From NCBI GenBank assembly GCA_041653595.1, contig JBAZFB010000003.1, forward strand, positions 64,346-128,345: a DNA stretch of 64,000 nt, read 5' to 3'. Source of the DNA: Candidatus Omnitrophota bacterium. Its GTDB lineage: Bacteria; Omnitrophota; Gorgyraeia; Pluralincolimonadales; Pluralincolimonadaceae. Both the position numbers and the translations under genes were made by a program. The notes beneath the pieces are model-generated. The model was not told where the DNA came from and made no database searches. It saw nothing but the letters and a program-made list of their open reading frames with translations. This document shows positions 4,167 through 26,061 of the stretch, piece by piece; positions within the stretch are counted from its first letter, which is position 1, and every line of letters starts with the position of its first letter.

Positions 4167-5350
4167 CCCATCCCAAAAAAATATTATACCTTGATTGCCC
4201 GAGCGGGATAAGCGGCGATATGTTCCTGGGATCGCTCATAGATTGCGGCCTCGATATCAGGCGCCTCGCCTCGCAGCTGCGCAAGATGAAGATAGGCGTA
4301 TATAAATTGGCCGCGCGCAAAGTCTCGCGCGCCGGCGTATCAGGCGTCAAATTCGACGTCATATATAAAAAGCACCACGGGCACGAGCATACCGACGACA
4401 AGACATTCAAGGGCATCGTGAAGGCGATAAGGTCATCGGGCCTGTCGACCCGGGTCAAGGAAATGTCAGCCGCCGTTTTCACCAACCTCGCGAAAGCGGA
4501 GAGCAGGGCCCACGGGATCCCGGTTGAGAAAGTGCATTTCCACGAGGTCGGAGATATAGATTCCGTCGTGGATATAGTCGGCGCCTGCGTCGCTCTGGAG
4601 GAGATGGAAATAGATGAGGTCTATTCTTCACGCCTCACTATCGCCGCTCCCGCTCCCGCGACCGCTTACCTGTTGCAGGGGATAGATATCTCCGTCGCCG
4701 GCGCGCCTTTTGAATTGGCCACACCCACAGGCGCCGCGCTCCTTAAGACATTTTCAAGATCGCAGATCGATATACCGGCAATGAAAGTCCTCCGGGCCGG
4801 GTTCGGCGCCGGAAGCCGTGAGATCCCGGACAGGCCGAACCTGCTCAAGGCGATAATAGGCGAGAGAAGGACAAACGGCGACGCGGATGTCGTCACGGTA
4901 TTGGAGACCAACATCGATGATATGAACCCCCAGGTCTACGGGCATCTTATCGACAGGCTCTTTGAGGCGGGGGCGCTGGATGTTTATATCACGCCCGCGA
5001 TAATGAAAAAATCGCGGCCCGCCTGCGTATTGACGGTCCTCTCCGGGCCCTCGACGGCCGGGGATCTCTCAGGGATCATCTTCGAAGAGACGTCCACATT
5101 CGGCATCAGGCGGCATAACGCCGAACGGCTGAAACTTGAACGTAAAATAGTTGAAGTAAAGACAAAATATGGTAATATAAAGGTGAAGGCGGGCTTCTAC
5201 AAGAACTCGCTTAATATCTGTTCTCCGGAATACGAAGATTGCAAAAGGATCGCGCGGCTCAAAAAGGTTCCTTTTTCGGCCGTCAGGCGCGAGGCCGAGG
5301 CCGCAGCGAGCAGGAAGATAAAAGGGGAGAAGCGGGGATTTGCTAAATAA
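4163..5350 (+). CDS. larC: LarC, nickel-pincer nucleotide cofactor nickel insertion protein (DUF111)
   Basis: 'ILYLDCPSGISGDMFLGSLIDCGLD' N-terminus diagnostic of LarC; C-terminal LarC2-like domain present. Confidence 0.85.
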   Translation: MTHPKKILYLDCPSGISGDMFLGSLIDCGLDIRRLASQLRKMKIGVYKLAARKVSRAGVSGVKFDVIYKKHHGHEHTDDKTFKGIVKAIRSSGLSTRVKEMSAAVFTNLAKAESRAHGIPVEKVHFHEVGDIDSVVDIVGACVALEEMEIDEVYSSRLTIAAPAPATAYLLQGIDISVAGAPFELATPTGAALLKTFSRSQIDIPAMKVLRAGFGAGSREIPDRPNLLKAIIGERRTNGDADVVTVLETNIDDMNPQVYGHLIDRLFEAGALDVYITPAIMKKSRPACVLTVLSGPSTAGDLSGIIFEETSTFGIRRHNAERLKLERKIVEVKTKYGNIKVKAGFYKNSLNICSPEYEDCKRIARLKKVPFSAVRREAEAAASRKIKGEKRGFAK

Positions 5351-7049
5351 GAGCAGGCTCATAGCCGAATACGTCAGGTCCATAGGGATCCTGGAAGAAT
5401 CCCAGGTCAAGAACGTCCTTAAGTCACAGGTCGAATCTGGCGGCCGTCTCTCCGACATCCTCACCGGAATAGGTTTTTTAAAGATAGAACAGCTCAGGGA
5501 CCTCATCGTGCAGGAATTCTCCCTCGCCCGTTCCCCGATCTTCGACATGGAGATACCGTTCGACGTGCTCCAGAAGGTAAAACCGAACATCGCCTACCGG
5601 CATAGGATGGTGCCTATTAAATACGCGGACGACGTGCTTACCGTCGCCACCGATGATCCCATAAATCTCCTCGGGCAGGATAATCTCGAAGACTTGACCG
5701 GATGTAAATTAAATTTTGTCCTGACCTCGGAGACCAACCTCTCGATCGCGCTCGAAAAACATTACGGGGGCAGCAAGAATATCCTCGATGCGGTCGCGCA
5801 GAAAAAGGATTCGGAGATAGCGGTATCTTTCAAGGGAGCGGCCGGAGAGGTCGCCAAGGAAGAGGAGAAAGAGGAAGCCCCGATAATAAAACTGGTCACG
5901 CAGATAATCGCCGAGGCCGTAAAGAACCGCGCCTCGGATATCCATGTCGAGCCGCTCGAGGACAAATTCCGGATAAGATACAGGATAGACGGTGTTTTGC
6001 ACGAAGTGCCGGGCCCGCCCAAACAGCTGCAGCCGTCTATTATAAGCCGCCTGAAGATCATGGCGGGCATGAATATCGCGGAGAAGAGGCTGCCCCAGGA
6101 CGGCAGGATAAGGATCCATGGCGCGGGAAAGGACCTCGACCTGCGCGTCTCCACGCTCCCCGCTCTTTATGGTGAAAGCGTGGTCATGAGGATCCTAGAT
6201 AAATCGAGTTTCATGCTGGGCCTTAAGGAATTGGGATTTCTCCACGGGGACGCGGACACGTTTGAAAGGCTGATACATCTCCCTTACGGGATGTTGCTTA
6301 TAACCGGTCCCACCGGCAGCGGCAAGACGACGACGTTATACGCCTCGCTCAGTTATATCAATAAGCCGAACAAAAAATTAATAACGATCGAGGACCCGGT
6401 CGAATACCAGATCTCAGGGATAAACCAGGTCCACGTCAAGCCTTCGATCGGCCTGACTTTCGCTTCCGGCCTCAGGACGATGCTGAGGCAGGCGCCCGAC
6501 GTCATAATGGTCGGCGAGATACGCGATTTCGAGACGGCGTCTATCGCGATACAGGCGGCCCTGACCGGGCATCTCCTCTTCAGCACGCTCCATACCAACG
6601 ACGCTGCCGGCGCTTTTACGCGCCTGATAGATATGGGCGTAAAGTCGTATCTGGTGAGCTCTACGGTGCAGGCCGTCATGGCCCAGCGCCTCGTCCGGAA
6701 GATATGCGACAACTGCAGGGAAAACTATCAACCGAGCCTCGAGGAATTATATGTGCTAGGCTACAAACAGGACGATCCGAAAGCAAGCGAGATAAAATTA
6801 TGGCGCGGGCACGGCTGCAAGAACTGCAATTATACGGGCTACCGGGGAAGGATAGGCATTTTCGAGCTTCTTATCAATACCGACGAAATAAGGGAGATGA
6901 TCATAAAGAGGCTGCCTTCTCCCGAGATCCGGGACGCGGCCCGGAGGCACGGCATGAAACTCCTGCGCGAGGACGGCCTCTCGAAAGCGCTGGAGGGCAT
7001 AACCACTATATCTGAGGTCGTGCGCATAACGCACGGTTACGAGGAATAA
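5340..7049 (+). CDS. gspE: Type II secretion/type IV pilus assembly ATPase, GspE/PilB family (paralog 1)
   Basis: GspE N-terminal domain, Walker A 'GPTGSGKTTT', Asp/His boxes, C-terminal tetracysteine 'CDNC...CKNC' zinc motif. Confidence 0.9.
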   Translation: MLNKSRLIAEYVRSIGILEESQVKNVLKSQVESGGRLSDILTGIGFLKIEQLRDLIVQEFSLARSPIFDMEIPFDVLQKVKPNIAYRHRMVPIKYADDVLTVATDDPINLLGQDNLEDLTGCKLNFVLTSETNLSIALEKHYGGSKNILDAVAQKKDSEIAVSFKGAAGEVAKEEEKEEAPIIKLVTQIIAEAVKNRASDIHVEPLEDKFRIRYRIDGVLHEVPGPPKQLQPSIISRLKIMAGMNIAEKRLPQDGRIRIHGAGKDLDLRVSTLPALYGESVVMRILDKSSFMLGLKELGFLHGDADTFERLIHLPYGMLLITGPTGSGKTTTLYASLSYINKPNKKLITIEDPVEYQISGINQVHVKPSIGLTFASGLRTMLRQAPDVIMVGEIRDFETASIAIQAALTGHLLFSTLHTNDAAGAFTRLIDMGVKSYLVSSTVQAVMAQRLVRKICDNCRENYQPSLEELYVLGYKQDDPKASEIKLWRGHGCKNCNYTGYRGRIGIFELLINTDEIREMIIKRLPSPEIRDAARRHGMKLLREDGLSKALEGITTISEVVRITHGYEE

Positions 7050-7050
7050 A

Positions 7051-8787
7051 ATGGCCCCGGAAAAAGAACAACAGTCTAAACAGGAAAAATTCAAGAAGAT
7101 AGGCCAGATGCTTCTCGAGAAAGGCCTTATAAATGACCATCAATTGGAACAGGCCCTCGAGGAACAGAAACTGACCGGTAAACTCCTGGGCCGGATCTTG
7201 ATCGATATGGGGCTGGTCAAAGAGGAGGATATCCTCCAGGTCCTCGGCGCGCGCTCAGGCTTCTCGGTAGCGAGGCTTAAGGGTACGAAGATCCCGAAGG
7301 AGGTCATCGACAAGGTCCCGGCCTCGGTCGCCAAGATATATACTATCATTCCCGTCGCCATCGACGGTAACCAGCTAACCGTCGCTATTGCCGATCCTCT
7401 GAATGTGGCTGCCTTCGACGACCTGCGGTTTACCCTCGGGATGAACATCAAGGGCGTCGTAGCCAGCGATGAGGAGATAAAAGAAGAGATACAGAAATAT
7501 TACGGATCCGAGGGAGAGACTATACAGGACGTCCTCGGCGTGTTCGGCGAAAAGATGGAACTCCTCCCGGTCGGCGAAGAAGCGACGGATATCTCCACGC
7601 TGCAGGAGCTCGCTTCCCGCGCCCCGGTCATAAAATTATTGAACATGATATTACTGCAGGGGGTCAAAGAGAAGGCCTCGGACATACATTTTGAGCCGTT
7701 CGAATCGGATTACAGGATAAGGTACAGGGTAGACGGCGTCCTCTATGAGGTGGCGCGGCCCCCGAAGAACTTGAGCCTCGGACTTTCGTCGAGGATAAAG
7801 GTCATGGCGAACCTCGATATAGCCGAACGCAGGCTTCCCCAGGACGGGCGCATCATGGTCACGATAGAAGGAAAGAGCGTCGACCTCAGGATTTCGACAT
7901 TGCCGACGATATTCGGAGAGAGCGTCGTCATGAGGGTGCTCGACAGGACGACTGTCAGCCTTTCGATCGACGATGTGGGGATGCTCGAGGATACAAAGAA
8001 GAGGATACGCACCCTGATCATCAAGCCCAACGGGATACTCCTCGCTACCGGCCCGACCGGTTGCGGCAAGACGACCACTTTGTACGGCTGCATGAAGGAG
8101 ATAAACAAGATAGAATATAAGGTCATCACGACCGAGGACCCTGTCGAGTACGACCTTAAAGGCGTAATACAGGTGCCGATAAACGCCAAGATCGGCCTTA
8201 CCTTCGCGACGTCGCTTCGCCACATCTTAAGGCAGGACCCGGATATAATCATGGTCGGCGAGATCCGCGACGCCGAGACCGCCCAGATAGCCATCCAGGC
8301 CTCGCTCACCGGACATCTCGTCTTCTCGACCATACATACCAATGACGCGGCAGGGACGATAACCAGGCTTATAGATATGGGCGTCGAGCCGTTCCTCGTG
8401 ACCTCGACGCTCGAGGCCGTACTTGCCCAACGCCTCGTCAGGAAGATATGCCAGTTCTGCAAAGAGGAATATACGCCCGAGCCGGAGATGCTATCCGACC
8501 TGGGGATAAAGCCTGAAGTCGCGAAGGGGAAGAAGTTCTACAGGGGAGCCGGCTGCGTAAAATGCAATAATTCCGGATATAAAGGAAGGACCGGCATATT
8601 TGAGCTCCTTATCCTTAACGACAAGCTCAGGGCCCTGATAATAGAGAAGGCCCATACCGCGTTGATAAAAGAGGCCGCCATAGAGGCCGGCATGAAGACC
8701 CTTCTTAACGACGGCCTTGAAAAGGTATTCCTCGGCGCCACTACGCTCGAGGAGGTCCTTAAAGAAGCCCAGACCGCGATCCTTTGA
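7051..8787 (+). CDS. gspE: Type II secretion/type IV pilus assembly ATPase, GspE/PilB family (paralog 2)
   Basis: Same architecture as upstream paralog: GspE_N domain, Walker A 'GPTGCGKTTT', 'CQFC...CVKC' zinc motif. Confidence 0.9.
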   Translation: MAPEKEQQSKQEKFKKIGQMLLEKGLINDHQLEQALEEQKLTGKLLGRILIDMGLVKEEDILQVLGARSGFSVARLKGTKIPKEVIDKVPASVAKIYTIIPVAIDGNQLTVAIADPLNVAAFDDLRFTLGMNIKGVVASDEEIKEEIQKYYGSEGETIQDVLGVFGEKMELLPVGEEATDISTLQELASRAPVIKLLNMILLQGVKEKASDIHFEPFESDYRIRYRVDGVLYEVARPPKNLSLGLSSRIKVMANLDIAERRLPQDGRIMVTIEGKSVDLRISTLPTIFGESVVMRVLDRTTVSLSIDDVGMLEDTKKRIRTLIIKPNGILLATGPTGCGKTTTLYGCMKEINKIEYKVITTEDPVEYDLKGVIQVPINAKIGLTFATSLRHILRQDPDIIMVGEIRDAETAQIAIQASLTGHLVFSTIHTNDAAGTITRLIDMGVEPFLVTSTLEAVLAQRLVRKICQFCKEEYTPEPEMLSDLGIKPEVAKGKKFYRGAGCVKCNNSGYKGRTGIFELLILNDKLRALIIEKAHTALIKEAAIEAGMKTLLNDGLEKVFLGATTLEEVLKEAQTAIL

Positions 8788-8842
8788 CTTTCGGTAACTT
8801 ATAGGGTATATTTATACTATAGACGAGAGAGGAACTACAACT

Positions 8843-10111
8843 ATGGCAATATTCAATTACGTGGCTATCGACAAGGACGGGAAAGAGATAAAAGGCAGGC
8901 TCGAGGTCAACTCTAATGATGAGGTAGTGACCCAGCTCCGCCAAAAAGGGCTCTATCCGGTAAGCGTAAGCGAGGAGAAGTCGAAAACGCCCGCTGCCGG
9001 CGCGGCTAAAGACCTGCGTGAGGGCCCTGCCCCGGCTAATAAAGGATCTATACTGAATCTCTCGCTGGGAGGGGTCAGCCAGAAGCAGGTGACCGTTTTT
9101 ACGCGGCAGCTGGCTACACTTATCGGGTCAGGCCTTCCTCTTGTGCGCGCGCTTTACGTCCTTGAGCGCCAGGAGAAAGGGGCCCTGAAAACGACCATCC
9201 GCGGCCTGGCCGAACAGGTAGAAGGCGGCAGTTCTTTTTCCGAAGCGCTCTCGAAATATCCGAAGGCTTTTCCCCCGCTTTATGTAAACACGGTCAAGGC
9301 CGGCGAGACCGGCGGCGTCCTTGAAGTCGTCCTGACGCGCCTGGCTGAATTCGCCGAGAAGTCGCAGAAGCTGAACAGCAGGATAAAGGCCGCCCTTATC
9401 TATCCCGCCCTTGTCCTGACGTTGGCGCTTTCGGTCTTATTTTTCCTGATAACTTTCATTGTCCCGAAATTCATGCAGATATTCAAAGAGATGAACGTCG
9501 AACTGCCGGGTCCGACAAAGGTGCTCCTCTTCGTCAGCAGTTTGATGAAAGACAGATGGTTTGTCGGGCTAGGGATCATCATCTTTGTCATCGTGGTCTA
9601 TACGATATTGTCCAGGGTAGCGGCGACGAGGCTGGTGATCGACAGGATAAAATTGGAGCTTCCGGTAATGGGGCCGTTGATCCGCAGGATAGCCATCGCG
9701 CGTTTCTCGAGGACGCTGGGCACTTTGCTTTCGAGCGGCGTCCCCATCCTGCAGTCGCTTATGGTCGCAAAAGATACGACCGGTAACGAGGTCATGGCGC
9801 GCTCGATAGTCCATGTCCACGACAGCGTACGCGAGGGAGAGACTGTGGCCAAGCCGCTCTTAAAGGCCGGTTTGTTCCCGGCGATGGCCGTCAATATGAT
9901 ATCTGTCGGCGAAGAGACCGGCGCCCTCGACCAGATGCTCCTCAAGATCGCGGACGTCTATGATGAAGAGGTGGATGTCACGGTAACGGGCCTTATGTCG
10001 TTATTGGAACCTTTCTTGATTATCGGCATGGGCCTGATCGTCGGCTTTATAGTAGTTTCGATGTTCATGCCGCTCTTCAACCTCATAACCGCATTGGGAG
10101 GGAATGGTTAA
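8843..10111 (+). CDS. gspF: GspF/PilC-family inner-membrane platform protein
   Basis: Two T2SSF-type repeats with three TM segments; 'LATLIGSGLPLVRAL' and 'LGTLLSSGVPILQSL' paired motifs. Confidence 0.9.
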   Translation: MAIFNYVAIDKDGKEIKGRLEVNSNDEVVTQLRQKGLYPVSVSEEKSKTPAAGAAKDLREGPAPANKGSILNLSLGGVSQKQVTVFTRQLATLIGSGLPLVRALYVLERQEKGALKTTIRGLAEQVEGGSSFSEALSKYPKAFPPLYVNTVKAGETGGVLEVVLTRLAEFAEKSQKLNSRIKAALIYPALVLTLALSVLFFLITFIVPKFMQIFKEMNVELPGPTKVLLFVSSLMKDRWFVGLGIIIFVIVVYTILSRVAATRLVIDRIKLELPVMGPLIRRIAIARFSRTLGTLLSSGVPILQSLMVAKDTTGNEVMARSIVHVHDSVREGETVAKPLLKAGLFPAMAVNMISVGEETGALDQMLLKIADVYDEEVDVTVTGLMSLLEPFLIIGMGLIVGFIVVSMFMPLFNLITALGGNG

Positions 10112-10583
10112 AATGGAAAAACGCAAAAGCGGGTTTACGATAATAGAGTTGATAGTCGTCATGACGATCATCCTTATATTGGCGGGCCTCATAACCGGCG
10201 CCGCGCAGAAGGCGAAGCAGCAGGCTATGATAGCCAAAGCCAGGTCGATGATAGCAGGCATCGAAACCGCGCTGGGGATGTTCCAGGCGGATACCGGGAT
10301 CTATCCCGCTTCCGCTAATTTGTATACGAACCTTGTCAGTTCCGCGACCGGCCTTACGACCGTCCAGGCGCAGAATTGGTCCGGGCCTTACATGAATTTC
10401 CAGACGAATGAAATAAATACCACCGCCGGCACTATACTCGACCCCTGGAACAGCGCCTACCATTATACTAACACCGGTTCGGCCTCGCACGGTTACGATC
10501 ATTACATTGATATCTGGTCCAACGGCCCTAATAAAGTGGACAATAGCGGCGCGGGCGACGATATAACCAACTGGAAAAGATAG
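10104..10583 (+). CDS. gspG: Major pseudopilin/type IV pilin-like protein (GspG-like), prepilin-type N-terminal methylation domain
   Basis: 'KSGFTIIELIVVMTIILILAGL' class III signal with G-1/F+1/E+5. Confidence 0.8.
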   Translation: MVKMEKRKSGFTIIELIVVMTIILILAGLITGAAQKAKQQAMIAKARSMIAGIETALGMFQADTGIYPASANLYTNLVSSATGLTTVQAQNWSGPYMNFQTNEINTTAGTILDPWNSAYHYTNTGSASHGYDHYIDIWSNGPNKVDNSGAGDDITNWKR

Positions 10584-10595: not shown

Positions 10596-10949
10596 ATGAG
10601 AAAAGGTTTCACGTTAATAGAGATAGTCATATCGCTCGCGATACTCGCCATAGGGCTGGTGGGCATATTGTCTCTTTTCCCGATAGGCTTTGACTCGGCG
10701 AGGCGCTCGGTGAATTCCACGCAGGTAGCGGTCTTTGCCAATAAGCACCTCGAAGAGCTGCGGAACACCGGATTTCCTTCTTTAGGCGTCACGAGCGGGG
10801 ACTTCTCCGACCCGTCTTATACGTGGACGCAGAGCGTCTCAACCGTAGACGCGATCGACGCATTAAGGCAGGTAGACCTGACGGTAAGCTGGCAATATAG
10901 GAACAGGGGTTATCAACAGGTATTCACGACCTATGTGGCGACCAGATAG
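10596..10949 (+). CDS. Minor pseudopilin (GspI-like), prepilin-type N-terminal domain
   Basis: 'KGFTLIEIVISLAILAIGL' prepilin motif with E+5; ~117 aa size typical of GspI. Confidence 0.6.
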   Translation: MRKGFTLIEIVISLAILAIGLVGILSLFPIGFDSARRSVNSTQVAVFANKHLEELRNTGFPSLGVTSGDFSDPSYTWTQSVSTVDAIDALRQVDLTVSWQYRNRGYQQVFTTYVATR

Positions 10950-14672: not shown

Positions 14673-14682
14673 GGATAACAAT

Positions 14683-15555: not shown

Positions 15556-15557
15556 AA

Positions 15558-15584
15558 TTGCCGGAAGAATTATTTTTTTATAAT
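15558..15584 (+). promoter_or_regulatory. Candidate promoter upstream of second GspK-like gene (TTGCCG-15-TATAAT)
   Basis: -35-like TTGCCG 15558-15563 and TATAAT 15579-15584 within AT-rich 55-bp gap; spacer 15 nt is suboptimal. Confidence 0.3.
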
Positions 15585-15610
15585 AGCTACCCTCGCGGGC
15601 ATACGAGAAA

Positions 15611-18097: not shown

Positions 18098-18116
18098 AAG
18101 GAGAAAAAAGAATAAA

Positions 18117-19196: not shown

Positions 19197-19233
19197 GCGC
19201 CTTTCGAATTTTTTGCTTTTTGAAAAGAAATAA

Positions 19234-19262
19234 TTGACAACTTTTGCTTAATCCTATAAAAT
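19234..19262 (+). promoter_or_regulatory. Sigma70-type promoter upstream of the pilM-like gene (TTGACA-17-TAAAAT)
   Basis: Consensus -35 TTGACA at 19234-19239, 17-nt spacer, -10 TAAAAT at 19257-19262, in the largest intergenic gap of the cluster; ATG at 19275 implies very short leader. Confidence 0.6.
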
Positions 19263-19274: not shown

Positions 19275-20924
19275 ATGGGAAAACGTGCTCTAGGGATCGA
19301 TATAGGCGCGGGCTCGGTAAAACTCGTAGAGCTGGAAAAGACGGCCGAAGGTATTCAGCTCATCCGGGCGAAATTTTTTGACTTGACCCAATATGCCGAC
19401 CAGGAAAAAAGGGACACCCTTATAAGGGAAGGCATAGAGGGGTTGTTGAGAACAGAAAAGATAAAGAGCGGCAGGCTCGCGCTCTCCCTCTCGGGCCAGT
19501 CGGTATTCATCCGCTTCCTCAAGCTCCCCAAGATCCAGCAAGGCAAGATAGACAAGATAATAAAATACGAAGCGCAGCAGCAGATCCCTTTCCCCCTCGA
19601 TAAGATAAGCTGGGACCACCAGATCTTCCGCTCCGGCGCGGGCCCGGAAGAGGACGTCCTTTTCGTCGCCGCGAAAAAAGAGATTGTCGAAACTACGCTT
19701 TCGCACGTAGCGAGGACCAACCTGGACATAGAGTTCGTCGATGTCAGCCCTCTGGCCCTCCTTAATTCCATAACTTATAATGAGCCCCTCGGCAAGGGGC
19801 TGATCCTTGATATCGGCGCCAAGGCGACCAATCTTATCGTCATATCGGACAAGGGGTTCTGGGTCCGTTCAATACTTATCGCCGGCGACGAGATGACCCA
19901 TGCGATCGCCTCAAAGTTAAATATACCTTTCGACAAGGCGGAGGAGCTTAAGCGCAAAGAGGGGATGGTGGTCGCGTCAGACAGCCTTGTTCCCTCGAAC
20001 ATCACCCCGGAGGGCAAAGACCTCGTTAATGCCCTGAACCCGGTCGTCTCCGACCTGATATCTTCGATCGTCCAGTCGATGGAATTTTACAAGACCAAAC
20101 ATGCCCGCGATACCGCCTTCAACGAGATCATATTATCGGGCGGCGGCTCAAAGCTCAAGGGCATAGAGGATTTCCTGGCGAAGGGGCTTGGCATGCAGAT
20201 AAGGCGCGCCAACCTGGGCCAGAAGATAAAATGCCCGTCCAACCTCAGGGTCGATATAGATTTTCAGACGCGCTTCGGCTCTTCGATCGGCCTGGCCCTG
20301 CGCCTGCTCCAGAGGTGCCCGACCAATATAGACCTGTTGCCGGCCGAGAGGAAAGAGGAAAGGGATTTCAAAAAAGAAAAATTCTGGATAATCTCCGCGG
20401 GCCTCCTTATTGCCGTAATACCGCTCACGATAGGGTATAATATCTGGTTCCAGACGTCGACCCTGAGGAAGGAAGTGGCCTTCCTGGATTCGCTTTTGTC
20501 GGATTACGAGAACATCAACAAGGGAATAGCCAAGCTTAAGGAAGATATCAAGAACAGCGAGGCCAGGCTGGAACCCTTTGAAAATCTGGCCATAAAGAAA
20601 AGCCTCTCTCTTGAGGCCATATTGGAGATAAGGAAGCTCCTGCCCGAAGAGACCTGGCTGACGTCGGTGGCCAAGGACAAGGACCTTTTCTCGGTTGAGG
20701 GCAGGACGACCTCGAGCCTCCTGACCATCAACGTTTTCAAGAACAGGCTCGCATCCTCGCCGTTATTCGATTCGGTAGAGATAATATACGCGAGCCTGCC
20801 CCGCCAGACCGAAGAGGGCGCGGGACAATTCAGGGATTTTTCCATAAAGTTCAGGTTCAAGGGGACCGGCGCGGCTGCGGCGGCCCCGAAGGGCGAGAAG
20901 GACGAAACGAAAGGCAAGAAATAG
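19275..20924 (+). CDS. PilM-like actin-fold ATPase fused to a PilN/GspL-like membrane/periplasmic segment
   Basis: 'LGIDIGAGSVKLVELEK' PilM N-terminus with actin-like fold, then TM 'FWIISAGLLIAVIPLTIGYNIWF' and coiled-coil/periplasmic tail; 549 aa (PilM alone is ~350). Confidence 0.7.
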   Translation: MGKRALGIDIGAGSVKLVELEKTAEGIQLIRAKFFDLTQYADQEKRDTLIREGIEGLLRTEKIKSGRLALSLSGQSVFIRFLKLPKIQQGKIDKIIKYEAQQQIPFPLDKISWDHQIFRSGAGPEEDVLFVAAKKEIVETTLSHVARTNLDIEFVDVSPLALLNSITYNEPLGKGLILDIGAKATNLIVISDKGFWVRSILIAGDEMTHAIASKLNIPFDKAEELKRKEGMVVASDSLVPSNITPEGKDLVNALNPVVSDLISSIVQSMEFYKTKHARDTAFNEIILSGGGSKLKGIEDFLAKGLGMQIRRANLGQKIKCPSNLRVDIDFQTRFGSSIGLALRLLQRCPTNIDLLPAERKEERDFKKEKFWIISAGLLIAVIPLTIGYNIWFQTSTLRKEVAFLDSLLSDYENINKGIAKLKEDIKNSEARLEPFENLAIKKSLSLEAILEIRKLLPEETWLTSVAKDKDLFSVEGRTTSSLLTINVFKNRLASSPLFDSVEIIYASLPRQTEEGAGQFRDFSIKFRFKGTGAAAAAPKGEKDETKGKK

Positions 20925-20927
20925 AAG

Positions 20928-21689
20928 ATGCCAAAAGGCATGAACGAGTCATTGACGACTAAGATATCCCTGGGAGCGGTCATACTGGTTTCATTTCTTT
21001 TTTTAGGGATAACCGTGTATGACAGGTTGAGGATCGAAGGGGCTGTCGTGCAGAAGCAGGAGCAGCTCAAGGTCTATAAAAACCAGGGCCTCGGTTTACT
21101 GAGCAGCGAAAAGAACCGCCTTGAGAGGCAGCTCAAGGCCATGCGGGAAGCCGACAAGGAGATAAGCGGCATGCTCTTCTCTAAACCGTCCTCCCGGATG
21201 GTGAAGGAGGTCGGGGATCCCCTTAAATTCAAGGAGGAGTTATACAAGGTCCAGAATAAGATAAAAGAGGACGGCGCTTCCATAAATTTCCAATTCCCGT
21301 TCTGGCTGGGTTTCGAGAGGTACGAGCACGATATACCGAATCCGGCGGACCTTCCGTTCAGGGTAAAGCAGCTCGACATAATAAACGAGATCGGCAGCCT
21401 TGCCCTGGCTTCGAAGGTGCCGGAGATCTCGACGATCGAATTCCTCGAGATCAAGAAAATAATGGCCGACAACAAGGAAATCCTTTTCATGGAATTTCCT
21501 GTCAGGGTGGTCCTTAAGTGCGGTAACGAGAGCCTGGTCAATTTTATGTATAAGCTGAGCGTCGCGGATGTGCCTTTGAGGATCGATTCGTTTAAAATAA
21601 AAGTTTCCGCAGACGAGAGCGCGGCCGAGGGCGACATGACCGGAGAGTTGGTCATAGTCGCTGCCGTATTGCCCGCGGAGAAGATATGA
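20928..21689 (+). CDS. PilO/GspM-like bitopic membrane protein
   Basis: N-terminal TM helix, coiled-coil, then ferredoxin-like periplasmic domain pattern; position after PilM/N-like gene. Confidence 0.45.
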   Translation: MPKGMNESLTTKISLGAVILVSFLFLGITVYDRLRIEGAVVQKQEQLKVYKNQGLGLLSSEKNRLERQLKAMREADKEISGMLFSKPSSRMVKEVGDPLKFKEELYKVQNKIKEDGASINFQFPFWLGFERYEHDIPNPADLPFRVKQLDIINEIGSLALASKVPEISTIEFLEIKKIMADNKEILFMEFPVRVVLKCGNESLVNFMYKLSVADVPLRIDSFKIKVSADESAAEGDMTGELVIVAAVLPAEKI

Positions 21690-22366
21690 AAGGCGCATCC
21701 CGAATAATAGCCGCAGCAGCATTCATTCTATGGATATTGGCGATGTGGAAATCGTCTTCGGTTTTTGAATCAAAGCAAGTCCCGTTCCGGCAGGAGGAGG
21801 AAGGCGGGGGAGACGTCGTGCCCGGTAAGGAGGGGACCGCCGCCCTGCCAAACTCTTTTTCGCATGTGGAAGTATTGCTCAAATCCCCTTATGCCGTCTC
21901 GAGATACAAGCCCCTTCTCGATGAGAACATGTTCATAAAGCCCGAACCCCCGGTCAAGGTCTTATCGCCTGTAGACCTGACGTTAGTGTCCGTCACGGCC
22001 GTACCCCTGCCTTTTATGTATAAAGGTTTTATCGAGGTGTCGGACGGGACCATAATAGGCCAGATCAACTGGTCCGGTAAGACGTATTTCGTAAAGAGGG
22101 GGCAAAAGGTCAAAGACTACAAAGTAACGGAGATCAACAGCAAGATTGTCAAGATGGAAAACAAGGATGGCCAGGTTACCCTCGAGTTCAAGAAGCCCGG
22201 GAAGAGCAAGGAATTGGTCGCAAAACTGCACGATTCAATGAATAATAAGGATATCGAGGCAAAGAAGGGGGACACGATCGGAGAGTATAAAGTTCTTGAC
22301 ATAAAAACTGATTCTGTGATATTATATGGCCAAAATAAAGAGTGGGTTATAACAAAGGGGAGATGA
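21686..22366 (+). CDS. PilP/GspC-like periplasmic protein with duplicated beta-domain
   Basis: N-terminal TM/signal; two similar beta-rich segments ('KTYFVKRGQKVKDYKVTEINSKIVKME' / 'KKGDTIGEYKVLDIKTDSVILYG') resembling the PilP HR domain; gene order. Confidence 0.4.
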   Translation: MKGASRIIAAAAFILWILAMWKSSSVFESKQVPFRQEEEGGGDVVPGKEGTAALPNSFSHVEVLLKSPYAVSRYKPLLDENMFIKPEPPVKVLSPVDLTLVSVTAVPLPFMYKGFIEVSDGTIIGQINWSGKTYFVKRGQKVKDYKVTEINSKIVKMENKDGQVTLEFKKPGKSKELVAKLHDSMNNKDIEAKKGDTIGEYKVLDIKTDSVILYGQNKEWVITKGR

Positions 22367-22371
22367 TATAA

Positions 22372-23499
22372 ATGAGTATGACCAATGAGGTTAAAAGAAC
22401 AGCAGGTAAGTTCTTTGTTTGCATCTTTTTGGCTTTTGATTCGTTCTTTATTATCTCATTAGGAAATGCTTTTTGCGCCAGGGTTTACGCCGCCTCCGAT
22501 GCTGATATAGCCAACGACTCGGTCGAGGCGAGGATAATAGCCCAGGACCTGGCCAAAGAGAAAAAAGTCGAACAAAAATACCTCATTAAAGACCTCTTCG
22601 ATCAAGCCAAGAGGGAATACGACGCTAAGAATTACGAAACGGCGCAGCATATCTTCGAGAGGATAGTCCAGCTGGACCCCAAGAATAAACAGGCCGTCCA
22701 TTATGTCGAGTTGTGCAAAGACGGCATAGTCAAGACCGTCCCCGATACGATAACCGGCTCTATGATAAAGCGCGGCAAAGCGAATTACGCGAGCAAAGAA
22801 TATTCCGCCGCGGTAGGTGATTTTGAGAGCGCGCTCGCCGCGAACCCCAATGATGCCGAAGCCCGGGATTGGCTGATCAAGGCGAGGCAGGCCGAGGGGT
22901 TGGACGCGAGGGAAAAGACTACCAAGGAAGAGCGCAAGTATGTCGTAAAGGACAGGCACGTAACGAACGAGGAGAAGGATACATCCGAGCAGAAGGCCTT
23001 GCTCGACGTGGATAGAGGATGGCTGCCCCCGGAGAAGACCGGCCGGGAAGAGTTGCAGGTCGAAGAGGTGATCCCGGAGTCGGAGAGGATCGAAGCGGCC
23101 GCAAGGGCGGCGCTCGAGGAGAAGATGGCGAAGGTTGTCGTTCCGGCCATATCGGTTACCGACGCCGACGTCCAGGACCTTATCCGCCAGTTGACCGAGA
23201 TGACGGGAGTAACTATCGTCATCGACGAGAAGGCGCTGGCCGCCCTCACCAGAGAGCAGCCGCTGAAGATCACGATCAGCACCGCTGCCCCTATGCCGTT
23301 GCTCGATATCCTGGGTATCGCGTTCAAGACTACGCAACTCGCTTATAAGGTCGAGACGAATTACGTTTATGTATCAAGCAGAGAGAATATAATGAGAGAA
23401 GGCCTTGTCACGAGGACTTACAAACTCAAATACGGCGAACGCAAGACTCGCGCGGTCAAATTAACAGAGTTTGAAAACAAGGCGGCAGACGCGAAATGA
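22372..23499 (+). CDS. TPR-repeat protein with C-terminal secretin-N (N0/STN-like) domain
   Basis: TPR-like 'AKNYETAQHIFERIVQLDPKNKQA', 'SKEYSAAVGDFESALAANPNDAEA'; C-terminal 'VTDADVQDLIRQLTEMTGVTIVIDE...LDILGIAFKTTQLAYKVETNYVYVS' resembles secretin N0/STN domain. Confidence 0.5.
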   Translation: MSMTNEVKRTAGKFFVCIFLAFDSFFIISLGNAFCARVYAASDADIANDSVEARIIAQDLAKEKKVEQKYLIKDLFDQAKREYDAKNYETAQHIFERIVQLDPKNKQAVHYVELCKDGIVKTVPDTITGSMIKRGKANYASKEYSAAVGDFESALAANPNDAEARDWLIKARQAEGLDAREKTTKEERKYVVKDRHVTNEEKDTSEQKALLDVDRGWLPPEKTGREELQVEEVIPESERIEAAARAALEEKMAKVVVPAISVTDADVQDLIRQLTEMTGVTIVIDEKALAALTREQPLKITISTAAPMPLLDILGIAFKTTQLAYKVETNYVYVSSRENIMREGLVTRTYKLKYGERKTRAVKLTEFENKAADAK

Positions 23500-24617
23500 A
23501 GAAAAAGTTTATCGCGGGGGCGGTAATAATTTGTTTGGCGATCCCCCAGATCGCGCTCTTTGCGGCCGATGACGGCAGCCTCAATATCAAAGATTATCTC
23601 GAGCAAAGCCTGCCTGCCCAGGATGGGAGAAAGATAACCTATAATGATGGCACGAGGCTCCTGACCGTTACCGATACGAAAGACAACCAGGAACTCATCA
23701 GGAGTTTAATAAAGGGGTATGAGGTCGGTCCCAAGCAGGTGATGATCGAGACCAGGTTCGTGGAAGTGGCCGTCACCGACCTGGACGAGCTGGGTATAGA
23801 ATGGGATTTCTTCCATCCCGGCAACGCCAACGACAAAAACAGCGGATTTACCATAGGCGCTCCTGTGGGTACACCGTATCAGGGCCTGCGCTGGAATAAT
23901 GATCTGACCTCGACGTTCCCCGTCGTGGGGAATTTCGCCGGCCAGGTCATGATGTTCAAAGTTTTGGCCAACGGTGAGGCCTATATAGCGAATCTCAGAT
24001 TTTTAGAGCAACAGGGGAAGGCCAATCTCCTTTCCGCTCCCAAGGTTACCGCGATCTCCGGCCAGATGGCGAACATCCAGGTGGTAAGGACATATCCTTA
24101 CGTATCTGATTTTACGCTCGAGAACATAGGGACGGCTGAGTTCCCTATCTGGAGTTACAAATTGTCCCTTGCCGAAAAACCGGTAGGCATATTCCTTGAA
24201 GCGACCCCTTATGTCACCGAAGGGTCGAATACCATAACTTTAGACCTGCATCCGGAGGTGAGCGTCCTGCGGTCGCAAGTGGCCATCTCTAACCTAAGTA
24301 CGAGCGGCGAGACGGGGCAGCTGGGTAATGTAACCTCCGCGACCAACGTAAAACTCATACCGGCTGACCTCGGTTGGCCTGTTGTGGACGTGAGGACCAC
24401 CCAGACGAGCGTTTCGGTAGACAGCGGGGCGACGATAGTGCTGGGCGGGCTTATCAAGGACAGCGAGACGATAACGCACAGGAAGATCCCGGTCCTCGGA
24501 GACATACCTTTGTTAGGGCAGGCTTTCCGGTATGATTACAAAAGCCAGACCAAGACGAACCTGCTTATATTTATTACGGCGAGCATTATCGACGCGAAAG
24601 GCGAGGTCATAAGATGA
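23496..24617 (+). CDS. Minimal secretin (GspD/PilQ family; N3-like + secretin domain), paralog 1
   Basis: Signal peptide; N3-like 'QVMIETRFVEVAVTDLDELGIEW'; secretin core 'RTTQTSVSVDSGATIVLGGLI...KIPVLGDIPLLGQAFR...KTNLLIFITASII'. Confidence 0.85.
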   Translation: MKKKFIAGAVIICLAIPQIALFAADDGSLNIKDYLEQSLPAQDGRKITYNDGTRLLTVTDTKDNQELIRSLIKGYEVGPKQVMIETRFVEVAVTDLDELGIEWDFFHPGNANDKNSGFTIGAPVGTPYQGLRWNNDLTSTFPVVGNFAGQVMMFKVLANGEAYIANLRFLEQQGKANLLSAPKVTAISGQMANIQVVRTYPYVSDFTLENIGTAEFPIWSYKLSLAEKPVGIFLEATPYVTEGSNTITLDLHPEVSVLRSQVAISNLSTSGETGQLGNVTSATNVKLIPADLGWPVVDVRTTQTSVSVDSGATIVLGGLIKDSETITHRKIPVLGDIPLLGQAFRYDYKSQTKTNLLIFITASIIDAKGEVIR

Positions 24618-25732
24618 AGAATAAATACGGCGTTTCTTTGCCGCAGGTGATCTTGTTCTCGGCGGCGATCCTCCTTTCGTTGGCGTCCGGGCGGGTTTTT
24701 GCGGCGGATGCGCCTGCCGCGGAGATGTCAGCCGGCGGAGAGGCGGCAGGCATCGAGCAATATCTGCAGGACGCCCTTCCTGAGAACCCGGAAAGGAAGG
24801 TCGTTTATGACTCATTGACCGGCGTTCTTACCGTTACCGATACCCCGACTAACCAGGCGATGGCCAAGGACCTGATAAGGTTATGGGATACCGGGTCCAC
24901 GCAGGTAAGGATACAGGCGAGGTTTGTGGAGATCCAGGTCACTGATATAGAGGAGTTGGGGATCGAATGGCAGGTCTTTAAGGCGCAAAGATATCCCATG
25001 GATAAGAACGGCCACTGGAGCAATTTCGGGACCAGCCTTTCCAGCGGGTCGCTGAGCGAAGACCAGACTGCTGCCGGTTTCTTCGGAACGGCAAACGAGA
25101 CTTCGGGTCTGGGTTTGACTATCGGAAAGTTCACGAACGCGGGGGATATATATAGGGCGTATATAAAGGCGCTTATCGAGCAGGGGAAAGCCAGTCTCTT
25201 GTCTTCTCCTTCGGTGACCACTATCTCCGGCCAGATGGCGAACATCCAGGTGGCTAACATAGTCCCTTACGCCTCGGATTTCACGAGGACTAACATCGGC
25301 ACTGCCGATTTCCCGGTCATGGTCGAGATATACAAAGTGGCGGAAAAGGTGACCGGCATATCGCTTGAGGTGACGCCCTCGGTAGGAGGCGACAGTAAGG
25401 TGGTCACGATGGATATACATCCCGAGGTCAGCATCCTGGTCGACCAGATCCCGATCTCTTCTTCGGACGATTTCCCGGCAAACTTAGGATACCCGGTCAT
25501 CGACACGAGGACCACGCAGACATCGGTGGTCGTCAAGAGCGGAGAGACGGTCGTACTGGGCGGATTAATAAGGGAAGATGAAAGAACGACGAAAAGGAAG
25601 ATTCCTGTCCTGGGAGATATACCTCTCCTTGGCCATCTCTTCACGACCGACCACACCGACAAGTCAAAGAAGAACCTGTTGATTTTCCTGACAGCCACGA
25701 TATTAGACTCAAGAGGAGAACCGGTGCTATGA
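24614..25732 (+). CDS. Minimal secretin (GspD/PilQ family), paralog 2
   Basis: Same architecture: 'QVRIQARFVEIQVTDIEELGIEW', 'RTTQTSVVVKSGETVVLGGLI...KIPVLGDIPLLGHLF...KKNLLIFLTATIL'. Confidence 0.85.
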   Translation: MKNKYGVSLPQVILFSAAILLSLASGRVFAADAPAAEMSAGGEAAGIEQYLQDALPENPERKVVYDSLTGVLTVTDTPTNQAMAKDLIRLWDTGSTQVRIQARFVEIQVTDIEELGIEWQVFKAQRYPMDKNGHWSNFGTSLSSGSLSEDQTAAGFFGTANETSGLGLTIGKFTNAGDIYRAYIKALIEQGKASLLSSPSVTTISGQMANIQVANIVPYASDFTRTNIGTADFPVMVEIYKVAEKVTGISLEVTPSVGGDSKVVTMDIHPEVSILVDQIPISSSDDFPANLGYPVIDTRTTQTSVVVKSGETVVLGGLIREDERTTKRKIPVLGDIPLLGHLFTTDHTDKSKKNLLIFLTATILDSRGEPVL

Positions 25733-26061
25733 AACGCGGAATATTGTTGATATCCGTTCTTTTATGCGCTATTATCTTGTCGTCAGCTGCGATGGCCCAG
25801 TACCTTCCCGCTACTTCTTCTGCGACTGCAAAGAGCGCCAAACAGAAGGACATTGTCCTCACTACCGCGGACATAAAAGATTCCTATAAGGTCATAGGGA
25901 TCGTCTCTATCCGCGGCGGCGAAGTGAACCTCGACGCCTTAAACAGCAAGCTTAAGGACGCGGGAAAGGAATTGGGGGCCGATGCCGTGATAGGCATACA
26001 GTATTTCACCTACAGCGGCTACGTATATGCCTATGGGACGGCCGTAAAGATCAAGGAATAG
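25729..26061 (+). CDS. Small secreted/lipoprotein-like protein, possibly secretin-associated (pilotin-like?)
   Basis: Signal peptide 'MKRGILLISVLLCAIILSSAAMA'; 110 aa; last gene of the secretion cluster; weak resemblance to YbjQ-like beta-domain ('ELGADAVIGIQY...YAYGTAVKI'). Confidence 0.4.
   Translation: MKRGILLISVLLCAIILSSAAMAQYLPATSSATAKSAKQKDIVLTTADIKDSYKVIGIVSIRGGEVNLDALNSKLKDAGKELGADAVIGIQYFTYSGYVYAYGTAVKIKE

Follow-up and report, generated by a model that had tools for sequence, protein, structure and literature searches.

The gene cluster is located at positions 5340–26061 of the window (the whole 64,000-nt stretch of Candidatus Omnitrophota DNA that was analyzed), and its 17 genes, g1 to g17, together encode a type IV filament machine. 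An earlier, sequence-only reading had claimed 17 co-directional genes, and the ORF check found all 17 open reading frames on the + strand at the coordinates given below. The sole correction to the ORF list concerned g10, for which a start at ATG 18090 is likelier than at TTG 18036. The intergenic gaps were short, and ATGA overlaps were found at five junctions of the cluster. Profile-HMM annotation gave matches to T2SSE/MshEN, T2SSF, T2SSG/N_methyl, PilM/PilN, STN, Secretin_N/Secretin and PA14. A promoter-like site (TTGACA-17-TAAAAT, 11/12 consensus match) was present in the g10/g11 gap (19234..19262, +), as a consensus match only, given that such sites number 26 in the region, where chance alone predicts 17. 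Genes of the Wood-Ljungdahl methyl branch are encoded in the same window as the pilus cluster.

The first two genes encode ATPases, g1 (5340..7049; 569 aa; T2SSE E 2e-141 plus MshEN) and g2 (7051..8787; 578 aa; T2SSE plus MshEN), which share 46% identity and have intact catalytic motifs. In g1, a PilB-type extension ATPase (PilB TIGR02538, 629 bits), the Walker A/B motifs, the Asp and His boxes and the tetra-Cys motif were all intact, the c-di-GMP motif of MshEN was divergent (22 bits, below the cutoff of 38), and the top PDB matches were the PilB proteins of Geobacter and Myxococcus. In g2, the c-di-GMP-binding motif was intact (NF053729, 66.8 bits, above the cutoff of 38), and the GspE model TIGR02533 scored 649.5 bits, above its cutoff of 630.25, although PilB structures (548 bits) outscored GspE structures (441 bits). 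Two ATPases are present as had been claimed, but the earlier GspE-type label needs correction towards PilB, which outscores GspE for both. The platform protein g3 (PilC/GspF; 8843..10111; 422 aa; two T2SSF domains, E 2e-59) scored 410 bits against GspF and 392 bits against PilC, each under its equivalog cutoff.

Three pilin genes follow. The GspG-like major pilin g4 (10104..10583; 159 aa; T2SSG and N_methyl) has the leader ...KRKSG|FTIIELIVV, and its top PDB match, PulG 5wda, was obtained through the C-terminal segment D-I-x-S-x-G-P-(D/N)...DDI-x-N, which we take to be the GspG calcium-binding loop. The minor pilins g5 (GspI/PilV-like; 10596..10949; 117 aa; N_methyl; leader MRKG|FTLIE) and g6 (GspJ/PilW-like; 10933..11697; 254 aa; N_methyl) were assigned from sub-threshold matches, namely XpsI, PilV, GspI and Verru_Chthon cassette protein B for g5, and HpsC, GspJ and Verru_Chthon cassette protein C for g6; the g6 ortholog in locus L002 gave a weak T2SSJ match. 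Canonical class III signal peptides (G|F/L-T-L-x-E) were found only in g4, g5 and g6, and the leaders of g7 and g9 were of the GspK type, which lacks Glu5. The gene order g6-g7-g8-g9 recurs in an independent assembly (L001).

Downstream of g10 lies the alignment complex. The PilM-PilN fusion g11 (19275..20924; 549 aa; PilM_2 E 3e-34 plus PilN) exceeded the cutoff of TIGR01175 (142 versus 133 bits) and matched Amuc_1101_fam (E 3e-80); its identity was 59–97% within the closer Omnitrophota clade and 31–36% in deeper Omnitrophota lineages. The PilO-like g12 (20928..21689; 253 aa), which belongs to the Amuc_1100 family, was recognized by comparing its ortholog profile with structures (Amuc_1100 structures 6lad/6kny, E 2e-13; M. 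xanthus PilO, 9e-4), and its Amuc_1100_fam and GspM matches were weak. The putative PilP-like g13 (21686..22366; 226 aa) is the least secure assignment in the cluster, made mainly because its gene lies after that of PilO and before the secretin module; its PilP and GspC matches were sub-threshold, and its profile gave no match in the PDB.

The components of the outer-membrane pore were found to be split across three genes (g14, g15 and g16), the products of which would assemble together. The first, g14 (22372..23499; 375 aa), is a detached N-terminal half of a secretin and consists of a signal peptide, TPR, a linker and N0 (weak STN); Amuc_1098_fam was matched at positions 210–370 (E 7e-9) and GspD at positions 3–106. 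The sequence-only reading had placed N0 on a separate TPR protein, and this was borne out by the fused, full-length tandem secretins of sister lineages (L034, L039, L040, L048 and L051), with whose N-terminal halves g14 aligns. The short secretin paralogs g15 (23496..24617; 373 aa; Secretin E 5e-39) and g16 (24614..25732; 372 aa; Secretin E 3e-43) each have a signal peptide and a Secretin_N match, with one N domain before the secretin core in g15, and are 43% identical. Both paralogs are kept in 23 related loci, and in a neighbor-joining tree, built without bootstrap support, their orthologs formed two separate clades with mirrored topology. Comparison of these sequences thus places the origin of the pair in one ancient duplication. 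The local tandem duplication that had been proposed for ATPase and secretin does not hold, given that both duplications are ancient and conserved across related loci. The last gene, g17 (25729..26061; 110 aa; weak YbjQ_1 match and weak UPF0145 profile match), encodes a small exported YbjQ/UPF0145-like protein and overlaps g16 by ATGA; its orthologs come after the second secretin in 23 loci.

Between the minor pilins and the alignment complex are two giant pilins, each with a partner gene. The modular g7 (11694..14672; 992 aa) carries a PA14 lectin module and further beta-sandwich/CBM-like domains, and g9 (15611..18097; 828 aa) a ConA-like lectin/glucanase-fold module. The domain search confined the GspK match to the N-terminus of both, and their AF2 monomer models both matched the GspK fold; two large GspK-like proteins, as claimed earlier, are therefore present. 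Judged from these folds, the PA14 and ConA-like modules may bind glycans. Since PF12836 (HHH_3) is found in some g9-family homologs, one of which is named 'ComE-like DNA-binding protein' in one source, a competence pilus was also considered, in which GspK-like pilins would bind DNA through their helix-hairpin-helix alpha-domain, as proposed for Thermus ComZ. This is highly improbable: the HhH-like alpha-domain belongs to the GspK fold itself, which the g7 and g9 models match, the added modules have lectin and CBM folds rather than DNA-binding folds, and comEA, comEC and dprA were not found by domain search among the scanned window proteins.

The partners are secreted proteins with signal peptides, and the presence of a beta-helix and a TPR-like protein inside the pilin block was thereby confirmed. 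The right-handed beta-helix protein g8 (14683..15555; 290 aa) scored 25.6 bits against Beta_helix, just below the cutoff of 25.9, which its orthologs exceeded (L017, 44.8; L003, 29.5), and wherever a locus gave both a g7-type pilin and a g8 homolog, the latter comes after the former. The partner of g9, g10 (18090..19196; 368 aa), has TPR-type repeats visible only at the level of the family profile (BamD E 2e-6; YbgF 2e-4), and g10-type genes always follow g9-type genes in related loci. Nearly all giant GspK-like genes there are followed by a signal-peptide partner, with folds that include a GH2-like TIM barrel (L083), a multi-domain beta-helix protein of 1782 aa (L004), pectate-lyase-like beta-helices and, weakly, disaggregatase-related ones. 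Many partners of differing fold have in common an N-terminal 'ADIIxLKDGG' module, which suggests a shared docking element; the module is absent from g8 and g10 of the window.

When the window was aligned by blastn to its closest relatives (L003 and L005), positions 1714–11833 and 19209–30000 aligned at 84–86% identity, and only short fragments (66–72%) aligned in between. The breakpoints at 11833 and 19209 are sharp and delimit an unstranded, hypervariable 'tip cassette' island of 7.4 kb (11833..19209), comprising g7 from about codon 47, g8, g9 and g10. Protein identity to the closest relative was 79–95% for the machinery and 24–47% for g7–g10, and the similarity of g7 was higher to its counterpart in L002 (54%) than to that in L003 (39%), although L003 is the closer relative of the two. 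GC3 was 0.51–0.62 in the island versus mostly 0.66–0.72 outside, and GC dips between 12 and 20 kb of the window. L002, L010 and L011 carry the g9-g10 pair in duplicate; only g7 and g8 are present in L007, L014, L015 and L017, and only a g9-type gene in L020, L026 and L029–L033. The cassettes are thus modular, and the g7–g10 block has been replaced between lineages, for which a change of binding specificity may be the selective reason.

The cluster resembles a type IVa pilus (T4aP) more than a type II secretion system (T2SS): its two ATPases are PilB-like, its alignment complex consists of PilM-N/O/P, and pilT lies within the clusters of sister lineages. The hybrid of T2SS and type IV pilus claimed earlier was correct as to mixed features, the major pilin being GspG-like, but the mixture is not even, with PilM/N/O in the place of the GspL/M/C expected in a T2SS. 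As that reading had also stated, GspH, prepilin peptidase and PilT are missing from the window: a phmmer search with g1 as query found no third T2SSE-family ATPase among all the six-frame ORFs, and domain scans of ∼57 window proteins gave no match to Peptidase_A24 or GspH. In sister lineages, however, the cluster contains gspH as well as pilT, the latter between two pilB genes (L025, L031, L042 and L043). Their absence here is therefore due to losses that the cluster underwent in this lineage, which makes a true pilus likelier than a periplasmic pseudopilus.

A T2SS-like exporter, in which a short periplasmic g4 pseudopilus capped by g5-g6-g7/g9 pushes g8, g10 and possibly others through the secretin, with cap lectins that recognize cargo and not a host, is rather unlikely. 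It would account for the GspG-like g4, the GspE cutoff passed by g2, the GspF-leaning g3, the single operon lacking pilT in the window, and the Sec signal peptides and carbohydrate-active-type folds of the partners, which in some relatives resemble CAZymes. It fits poorly with the lack of GspC, GspL, GspM and GspH, with two full-length PilB-like ATPases that include MshEN, with pilT in the sister clusters and with hypervariability centered on the cap pilins, as predicted by surface exposure; moreover, cap pilins of 830–990 aa are hard to square with a piston confined to the periplasm.

Seymour et al. (2023; PMC10066038) had earlier recorded clusters of this kind under 'T4aP', found them in nearly all Omnitrophota and interpreted them as attachment devices. 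In our comparison of related loci, the cluster and its flanks were likewise conserved across the phylum, so the architecture is the standard one and not peculiar to this genome. New here are the hypervariable g7–g10 island, the ancient two-secretin duplication and the identification of the TPR-N0 protein as a detached secretin half. From the earlier interpretation as a whole, the display of large adhesive tip proteins and the detached N0 were retained; the even hybrid, the local duplication and the pseudopilus were given up.

The lectin-type modules of g7 and g9 and the fast evolution of their island are in keeping with the display of large adhesive tip proteins and less so with a classical exoprotein T2SS. 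The cluster probably encodes a type IVa-pilus-like adhesive machine that presents large, exchangeable glycan-binding tip subunits to a surface or to a host or prey cell. Precedents are known in PilC of S. sanguinis, a modular tip pilin bearing a lectin (PMC9934059), and in the interchangeable minor-pilin 'Tips' that serve predation in Myxococcus (PMC12075869). Against a pilus it counts that subunits of 90–110 kDa would have to pass through the secretin and that, with pilT and prepilin peptidase absent from the window, retraction and processing would depend on genes outside it. The pilus might also be dual-purpose, its lectins docking on a host or prey envelope and its tip-borne beta-helix and TPR partners degrading or penetrating polysaccharide in epibiotic predation or parasitism. 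This extension, which we regard as improbable, draws on the near-constant signal-peptide partners, their polysaccharide-related folds and common N-terminal module, the Myxococcus tips, and the proposal that Omnitrophota are predators or parasites using T4aP (PMC10066038); against it, the partners have no identified catalytic residues, g8 and g10 lack the common module, and the Wood-Ljungdahl genes are compatible with free-living acetogenesis.

In the favored adhesive pilus, a prepilin peptidase encoded elsewhere would process g4–g7 and g9. By fold and by analogy with the GspI-J-K and PilV-W-X complexes, g5, g6 and one giant GspK-fold pilin (g7 or g9) would form a priming complex that finally lies at the filament tip, and g4 would be polymerized under it on the PilC-like platform g3. 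Polymerization would be powered by g1 and g2, the latter probably c-di-GMP-responsive in view of its motif. The inner membrane would be connected to the outer-membrane pore by g11, g12 and g13, with g14 as a TPR-N0 ring touching g13 and a channel formed by g15 and g16, perhaps as a heteromer; g17 is possibly an accessory protein. The grafted PA14 and ConA-like modules would bind glycans, and the co-varying g8 and g10, whose gene position is that of PilY1 in known pili, could be carried at the tip or released there. The proposed place at the tip, the putative glycan binding and a possible heteromeric pore are extrapolated from AF2 models of monomers. Exchange of g7–g10 between lineages would then alter binding specificity without any change to the machine. 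How these tiny, possibly parasitic Omnitrophota cells recognize their hosts may be revealed by the tip subunits.

The cluster comprised 17 co-directional ORFs on the + strand (g1-g17, 5340-26061), with intergenic distances of -17 to +78 nt and ATGA stop/start overlaps at five junctions (g6/g7, g12/g13, g14/g15, g15/g16 and g16/g17). Genes were assigned from Pfam and NCBIfam scans. Two ATPases with T2SSE and MshEN domains (g1 and g2) are followed by the platform protein g3 (T2SSF), the pilin g4 (T2SSG/N_methyl) and two small N_methyl pilins, g5 and g6, whose respective GspI/PilV and GspJ/HpsC matches were sub-threshold. A PA14-containing protein of 992 amino acid residues (g7) and a protein of 828 residues (g9), both with an N-terminus matching the GspK model, alternate with two signal-peptide proteins, the beta-helix protein g8 and g10, the family profile of which matches TPR/BamD. 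The remaining genes encode a PilM-PilN fusion (g11), a PilO/Amuc_1100-like protein (g12), a weakly PilP-like protein (g13, assigned from a sub-threshold PilP match and its position), a TPR protein with an STN (N0) domain (g14), two secretins of 372-373 residues, each with a separate signal peptide (g15 and g16), and a YbjQ-like protein of 110 residues (g17). A sequence-only reading had described this array as a non-canonical T2SS/T4P hybrid, and every part of its observation was borne out by ORF, Pfam/NCBIfam, phmmer and leader checks, PilP being the weakest assignment; the sole coordinate change concerned the start of g10, for which ATG 18090 is more plausible than TTG 18036. Since promoter and terminator consensus matches hardly exceeded the shuffled expectation, no operon boundary is claimed from these scans. 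The Rfam scan of the window returned 0 matches, and the window holds one tRNA gene only.

The Walker A/B, Asp box, His box and tetra-cysteine motifs were intact in both g1 and g2, which are 46% identical; the MshEN c-di-GMP motif was above threshold in g2 and degenerate in g1. The best full-length matches in the PDB were PilB structures from Geobacter and Myxococcus (500 bits for g1, 548 bits for g2), GspE structures scoring lower (427 and 441 bits). Against the PilB equivalog TIGR02538, g1 and g2 reached 629 and 631 bits, both slightly below the cutoff of 675.65, and g2 exceeded the cutoff of the GspE equivalog model (649.5 bits; cutoff 630.25). The GspF model gave 410 bits for g3 (cutoff 424), and g4, which passed Pfam T2SSG, scored 73.7 bits against TIGR01710 (cutoff 88.85). 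Both ATPases are of the PilB-type extension class that marks a type IVa pilus (T4aP), and the PilM/N/O/P alignment subcomplex was also found, with PilP (g13) at sub-threshold level only. The fusion protein g11 carries PilM_2 and PilN (TIGR01175, 142 bits; cutoff 133), and the g12 profile matched Amuc_1100 (E 2e-13) and PilO (E 9e-4) in the PDB. As the ortholog profile of g13 found no match in the PDB, its designation as PilP is a positional guess. No GspC, GspL or GspM family reached its cutoff in the cluster, the weak matches being GspM on g12 and GspC on g13 (E 2e-4 each); the scaffold of the inner membrane and periplasm is PilM-N/O/(P) instead of GspC/L/M. The machine fits best as a T4aP-like system whose pilin set is of the T2SS type.

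Canonical class III leaders with Glu5 were present only in g4, g5 and g6, the leaders of g7 (KRG/VALII) and g9 (NKG/IALIV) being of the GspK type without Glu5. The nearest PDB relatives of g4 were PulG and GspG, and the alignment extended through the C-terminal segment, which we take to correspond to the Ca-binding loop of GspG. Among the minor pseudopilins, the GspK fold is represented by g7 and g9, GspI and GspJ are sub-threshold, and GspH is missing within the window. The earlier impression that the window lacks PilT, a prepilin peptidase and GspH proved correct: phmmer of g1 against all six-frame ORFs recovered g1 and g2 only, with no third T2SSE-family ORF in the 64-kb window, and 0 Peptidase_A24 or GspH matches were obtained among the scanned window proteins. 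In four more distant Omnitrophota loci, PilT-like ATPases of 353-356 residues lie between both pilB genes (L025:843-1913, L031:3513-4574, L042:2262-3326 and L043:5615-6679), and at L026:6312-6797 and L031:8278-8853 a pilin with a GspH domain is located between G and I. Both pilT and gspH have left the cluster in the window's lineage. The main rival to a pilus, a T2SS-like exporter of g8 and g10, would suit the GspG-like major pilin and the missing pilT; it appears unlikely because the machinery is PilB/PilMNOP, sister clusters contain pilT, and variability is concentrated on the cap pilins.

Among named systems, the nearest relatives are T4aP machines, the GspK-I-J tip complex of the T2SS and the Akkermansia Amuc_1098-1101 proteins. 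With the T4aP of Myxococcus, Pseudomonas and Thermus (PilB/T/C, PilM/N/O/P/Q, FimU-PilVWX, PilY1), the cluster shares PilB-like ATPases with an MshEN N-domain, a PilC-like platform, PilM, PilN, PilO, probably PilP, a secretin, and minor pilins equivalent to GspI/J/K, after which a secreted protein that is not a pilin occupies the place of PilY1; the pilB-pilT-(pilB2)-pilC order is found in sister Omnitrophota clusters. It differs in having two PilB paralogs, a fused PilM-PilN and a GspG-like major pilin, in the lack of pilT or pilD in the window, in a secretin split into a TPR-N0 protein and two short paralogous cores, with TPR replacing the AMIN domains, and in a PilX/GspK-type pilin that is 2.5-3 times the normal size and bears lectin modules. 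With the T2SS (GspC-M; GspK-GspI-GspJ tip complex, PDB 3ci0 and 5vtm) it shares a GspG-like major pilin with a GspG-type C-terminal segment, ATPase and platform scores at the GspE/GspF level, and a single operon, whereas GspC, GspL, GspM, GspH and a known cargo are absent, the ATPases are nearer to PilB, and the cap pilins are giant and hypervariable.

Models of g7 and g9 built with AF2 on family alignments were confident (pLDDT 79 and pTM 0.81 for g7; pLDDT 75 and pTM 0.76 for g9). Besides the GspK fold, they contained PA14, CBM-like and ConA-like domains, PA14 being detected by Pfam as well; the PA14 module spans about residues 220-415 of g7, and the ConA-like module lies in the C-terminal half of g9. 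Like GspK/PilX-type cap pilins, the two proteins have a class III leader that lacks Glu5 and an alpha-domain inserted into the pilin fold; like modular pilins, they carry an extra functional module on the pilin moiety. The fold, and not the N-terminal helix alone, therefore supports their initial identification as GspK homologs three times as large as normal. By alignment, g7 and g9 are paralogs, with 29% identity (E 4e-13) over the N-terminal 180 residues, a common middle motif (W-L-x-S-C-P ... K-L-G-x-W-D-N-F-D) and a common C-terminal sandwich. When 1.8 billion cluster representatives were searched with a profile, 348 proteins matched at E <= 1e-30; among the best 150 of these, many had 650-1000 residues and matched in several blocks (N-terminal, middle and/or C-terminal), and others were PA14-only matches within much larger proteins. 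Judged from these matches, the giant pilins form a large, uncharacterised family. Inspection of the g9 sequence by eye revealed no ExDxxE, the catalytic motif of the GH16 type, and no role is assigned to the conserved WDNFDEDND motif.

Adhesive modules grafted on a pilin have been described in S. sanguinis, where PilC carries a lectin module and PilB a vWA module. Both are proposed to sit in a tip complex together with a GspI-like partner, and g7 and g9 resemble this arrangement (PMC9934059, PMC8179133). Here, in contrast, a GspK-type pilin from a diderm machine serves as scaffold and bears several modules in a stack (PA14 with beta-sandwiches, or ConA-like), and two alternative giant pilins each have a secreted partner. 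PilC is a precedent in concept for a lectin-bearing modular tip pilin (PMC9934059), and g7 and g9 may likewise be located at the tip and bind ligands.

The genes g7-g10 form an island that differs sharply from its surroundings. In the closest relative (L003/L005), the machinery proteins were 79-95% identical to those of the window, compared with 39% for g7, 47% for g8, 40% for g9, 24% for g10 and 68% for the major pilin. Nucleotide colinearity with L003/L005 (84-86% identity over 1714-11833 and 19209-30000) collapsed from about codon 47 of g7, where the conserved pilin helix ends, to the g10/g11 gap, and GC3 was 0.51-0.62 in the island and mostly 0.66-0.72 outside it. As read from these alignments, the island has been replaced between lineages. 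Since g7 was nearer to its counterpart in the more distant L002 (54% identity) than to that in the closer L003 (39%), exchange rather than simple divergence is indicated. Across loci, two units occurred together or singly, namely a g7-type pilin with a beta-helix protein and a g9-type pilin with a TPR partner, the latter being duplicated in L002, L010 and L011. Several alternative minor-pilin complexes are likewise known from the Kil (Tad) pilus of Myxococcus xanthus, in which interchangeable 'Tips' place variable domains at the pilus end and have been linked to the recognition of diverse prey, a second precedent in concept (PMC12075869). Kil is, however, a Tad/T4c system with tips encoded at separate loci, whereas in the T4a-like cluster the tip modules form a replaceable island inside the machinery operon. 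As far as we could find, no earlier description exists of giant GspK-type pilins that bear lectin modules and, together with their secreted partners, are encoded on an exchangeable cassette inside the operon.

In related loci, a gene for a signal-peptide partner lay 3' of nearly every giant pilin gene, and the partner folds varied (beta-helix, Ig-like, GH2-like barrel, and a multi-domain protein of 1782 residues). Both g8 and g10 carry signal peptides. Directly after the signal peptide, partner proteins at L002:16298-17488, L017:3864-5015, L033:9085-9957, L083:8431-9777 and about eight more loci shared an N-terminal module of ~35 residues (ADIIxLKDGGxxxGKIIEE..TVKLKTG), followed by differing folds (TPR-like, beta-helix or GH2-like barrel). 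This module, which was not present in g8 or g10 of the window, could be a common docking element. A 454-residue protein encoded at 38370-39734 of the window gave a weak match to the GH2 TIM-barrel, a GH2-like barrel also being the fold of the tip-partner protein of L083.

The outer-membrane module consists of g14-g17, an order that recurred in 23 related Omnitrophota loci, including lineages with a PilM-N only 31-36% identical to that of the window. The secretins g15 and g16 (43% identity) each comprise a signal peptide, one N domain and a secretin core; instead of a single-polypeptide PilQ-type secretin with N0 and N1, there is one Secretin_N per core and the N0 is on g14. In a neighbor-joining tree of secretin cores (no bootstrap), the g15 and g16 orthologs formed two clades with mirrored internal topology, a pattern that suggests a single ancient duplication, after which neither copy was lost. 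Auribacterota and other sister lineages carry two tandem secretins of 640-815 residues, and for the majority of these pairs g14 aligned to the N-terminal halves and g15/g16 to the C-terminal ones; one long secretin is found in most loci of Planctomycetota and Verrucomicrobiota. These alignments agree with the first observation of an N0 module on a separate TPR protein, and they identify g14 as the detached N-terminal (TPR-N0) half of a secretin, a single copy of which would serve two core paralogs. For the N0 of g14, the evidence consists of the fused homologs and of weak matches to STN, Amuc_1098 and GspD; TPR matches swamped the g14 profile search, which gave no independent N0 signal. The last gene, g17, which is conserved and translationally coupled, encodes an exported protein of the YbjQ/UPF0145-like type; no role is assigned to it, and its profile gave weak YbjQ/UPF0145 matches only. 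A limited literature search turned up no account of secretins that are tandem, heteromeric or split. As far as we could find, neither the secretin seen here, which is duplicated, split and conserved and has g17 as a putative accessory, nor the conserved PilB pair has been described before.

Homologs of g7, g9 and g11 were confined almost entirely to Candidatus Omnitrophota/Omnitrophica MAGs. A PilM-N profile scan of GTDB species representatives yielded 80 loci; the whole cluster was syntenic in the closer Omnitrophota loci, and the g6-g7-g8-g9 order was reproduced in an independent assembly (L001). Clusters for a 'type-4a pilus' have been counted in almost all Omnitrophota and interpreted as devices for attachment in a lifestyle of symbiosis or predation (Seymour et al. 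2023, PMC10066038). The system kind is known and its presence in Omnitrophota published, and given this count and the synteny in relatives, the cluster is the standard pilus cluster of the phylum and not a single-genome peculiarity. An F-type ATPase adjoins many Omnitrophota T4aP clusters (PMC10066038); none was found among the scanned proteins of the 64-kb window. The T2SS-like locus beside giant genes of Omnitrophota (West-Roberts 2023) is a different system, that cluster being of the rcpC/Tad type, and the window holds no giant gene.

In the PVC superphylum, the 'pili-like' cluster of Akkermansia muciniphila has been described as Amuc_1098-1102 only (PMC5332112). The homologous secretin Amuc_1098, PilO-like Amuc_1100 and PilM-N fusion Amuc_1101 stand in the same order as here, with a single 805-residue secretin (NCBIfam model length) in place of the split and duplicated one. 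The window's proteins scored far below the NCBIfam equivalog cutoffs (Amuc_1101, 270.6 against 650; Amuc_1100, 27.3 against 180; Amuc_1098, 34-156 against 750) and, on these scores, are distant homologs outside those families. This homology places the much-studied Akkermansia cluster in a PVC-wide family of pilus machines. Weak N-terminal matches also linked g5, g6 and g7 to Verru_Chthon cassette proteins B, C and A, respectively (proteins A-D, TIGR02596-02600), protein A being a very large GspK-like PVC protein too (model about 1300 aa); membership of that cassette family was rejected, the scores being 21-34 bits against cutoffs of 51-332 and the matches confined to the pilin helix.

In the mechanism proposed here, g5, g6 and either g7 or g9 would prime assembly and cap the g4 filament, which g1 and g2 would assemble on g3, with g2 possibly tuned by c-di-GMP. 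The g11-g13 proteins would connect to the N0 ring of g14 below a g15/g16 pore, the PA14 and ConA-like modules would bind glycans of a surface or partner cell, and g8 and g10 may act at the tip or be released there. Omnitrophota are widespread, uncultured and ultra-small, and are suspected predators or parasites; the locus provides concrete, testable candidates for the recognition and holding of partner cells. With two giant lectin-module tip pilins on a lineage-swapped cassette and a conserved pilus machine, glycan specificity could be correlated with co-occurring hosts. The split and duplicated secretin bears on how bulky tip complexes cross the outer membrane in type IV filament and secretion biology, and a heteromeric secretin would overturn the assumption that secretins are homo-oligomers. 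We offer, as a tentative and rather doubtful extension, that the pore is the first obligately hetero-oligomeric three-gene secretin, in which g15 and g16 co-assemble, g14 forms the periplasmic ring and g17 is an accessory; that such a wider or asymmetric pore evolved to pass lectin-bearing GspK-type tip subunits of 90-110 kDa; and that the g7-g10 cassette sets the host or prey range of the ultra-small Omnitrophota.

Synteny in L002 and L003 extended to the upstream flank (TsaD, MgtC, bactofilin-HTH, HTH, LarB and LarC). Just upstream of the cluster, before LarB and LarC, lie a bactofilin-HTH_17 fusion (2514-3047) and a small HTH_17 protein (3016-3411), which keep this position in L002 and L003 and hence are candidates for a role in regulation or polar localisation. 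A LarB-like gene (AIRC domain) and LarC (Ni_insertion), at 3417-5350, directly precede g1 and overlap its start, an adjacency also kept in L002 and L003 that may be merely syntenic. A minus-strand ORF of 420 residues (1790-3052) was rejected as a gene, having no Pfam match and overlapping the + strand MgtC and bactofilin-HTH ORFs, which have Pfam matches and syntenic orthologs. On the 3' side, several loci carry an ORF of ~890 residues, identified by position only, where the window has PolA.

The rest of the window is housekeeping, including genes of the Wood-Ljungdahl methyl branch. The run at 42901-50467 (FTHFS, an FTCD_C-domain protein, FolD, MTHFR with a C-terminal partner, and a MetH-like corrinoid methyltransferase) agrees with reports of acetogenic metabolism in Omnitrophota. 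Four + strand ORFs of 675, 358, 222 and 199 residues (40827-42854, 53569-54645, 47413-48081 and 57422-58021) had no Pfam match at E <= 1e-5. At 30761-31279, 4.7 kb beyond the 3' end of the cluster, lies a gene for a GGDEF-only diguanylate cyclase of 172 residues, which may have a regulatory link to g2 and its intact MshEN c-di-GMP motif. Near the window end, a diadenylate cyclase (DAC domain) gene was found at 62519-63364, indicating c-di-AMP signalling alongside the c-di-GMP components.
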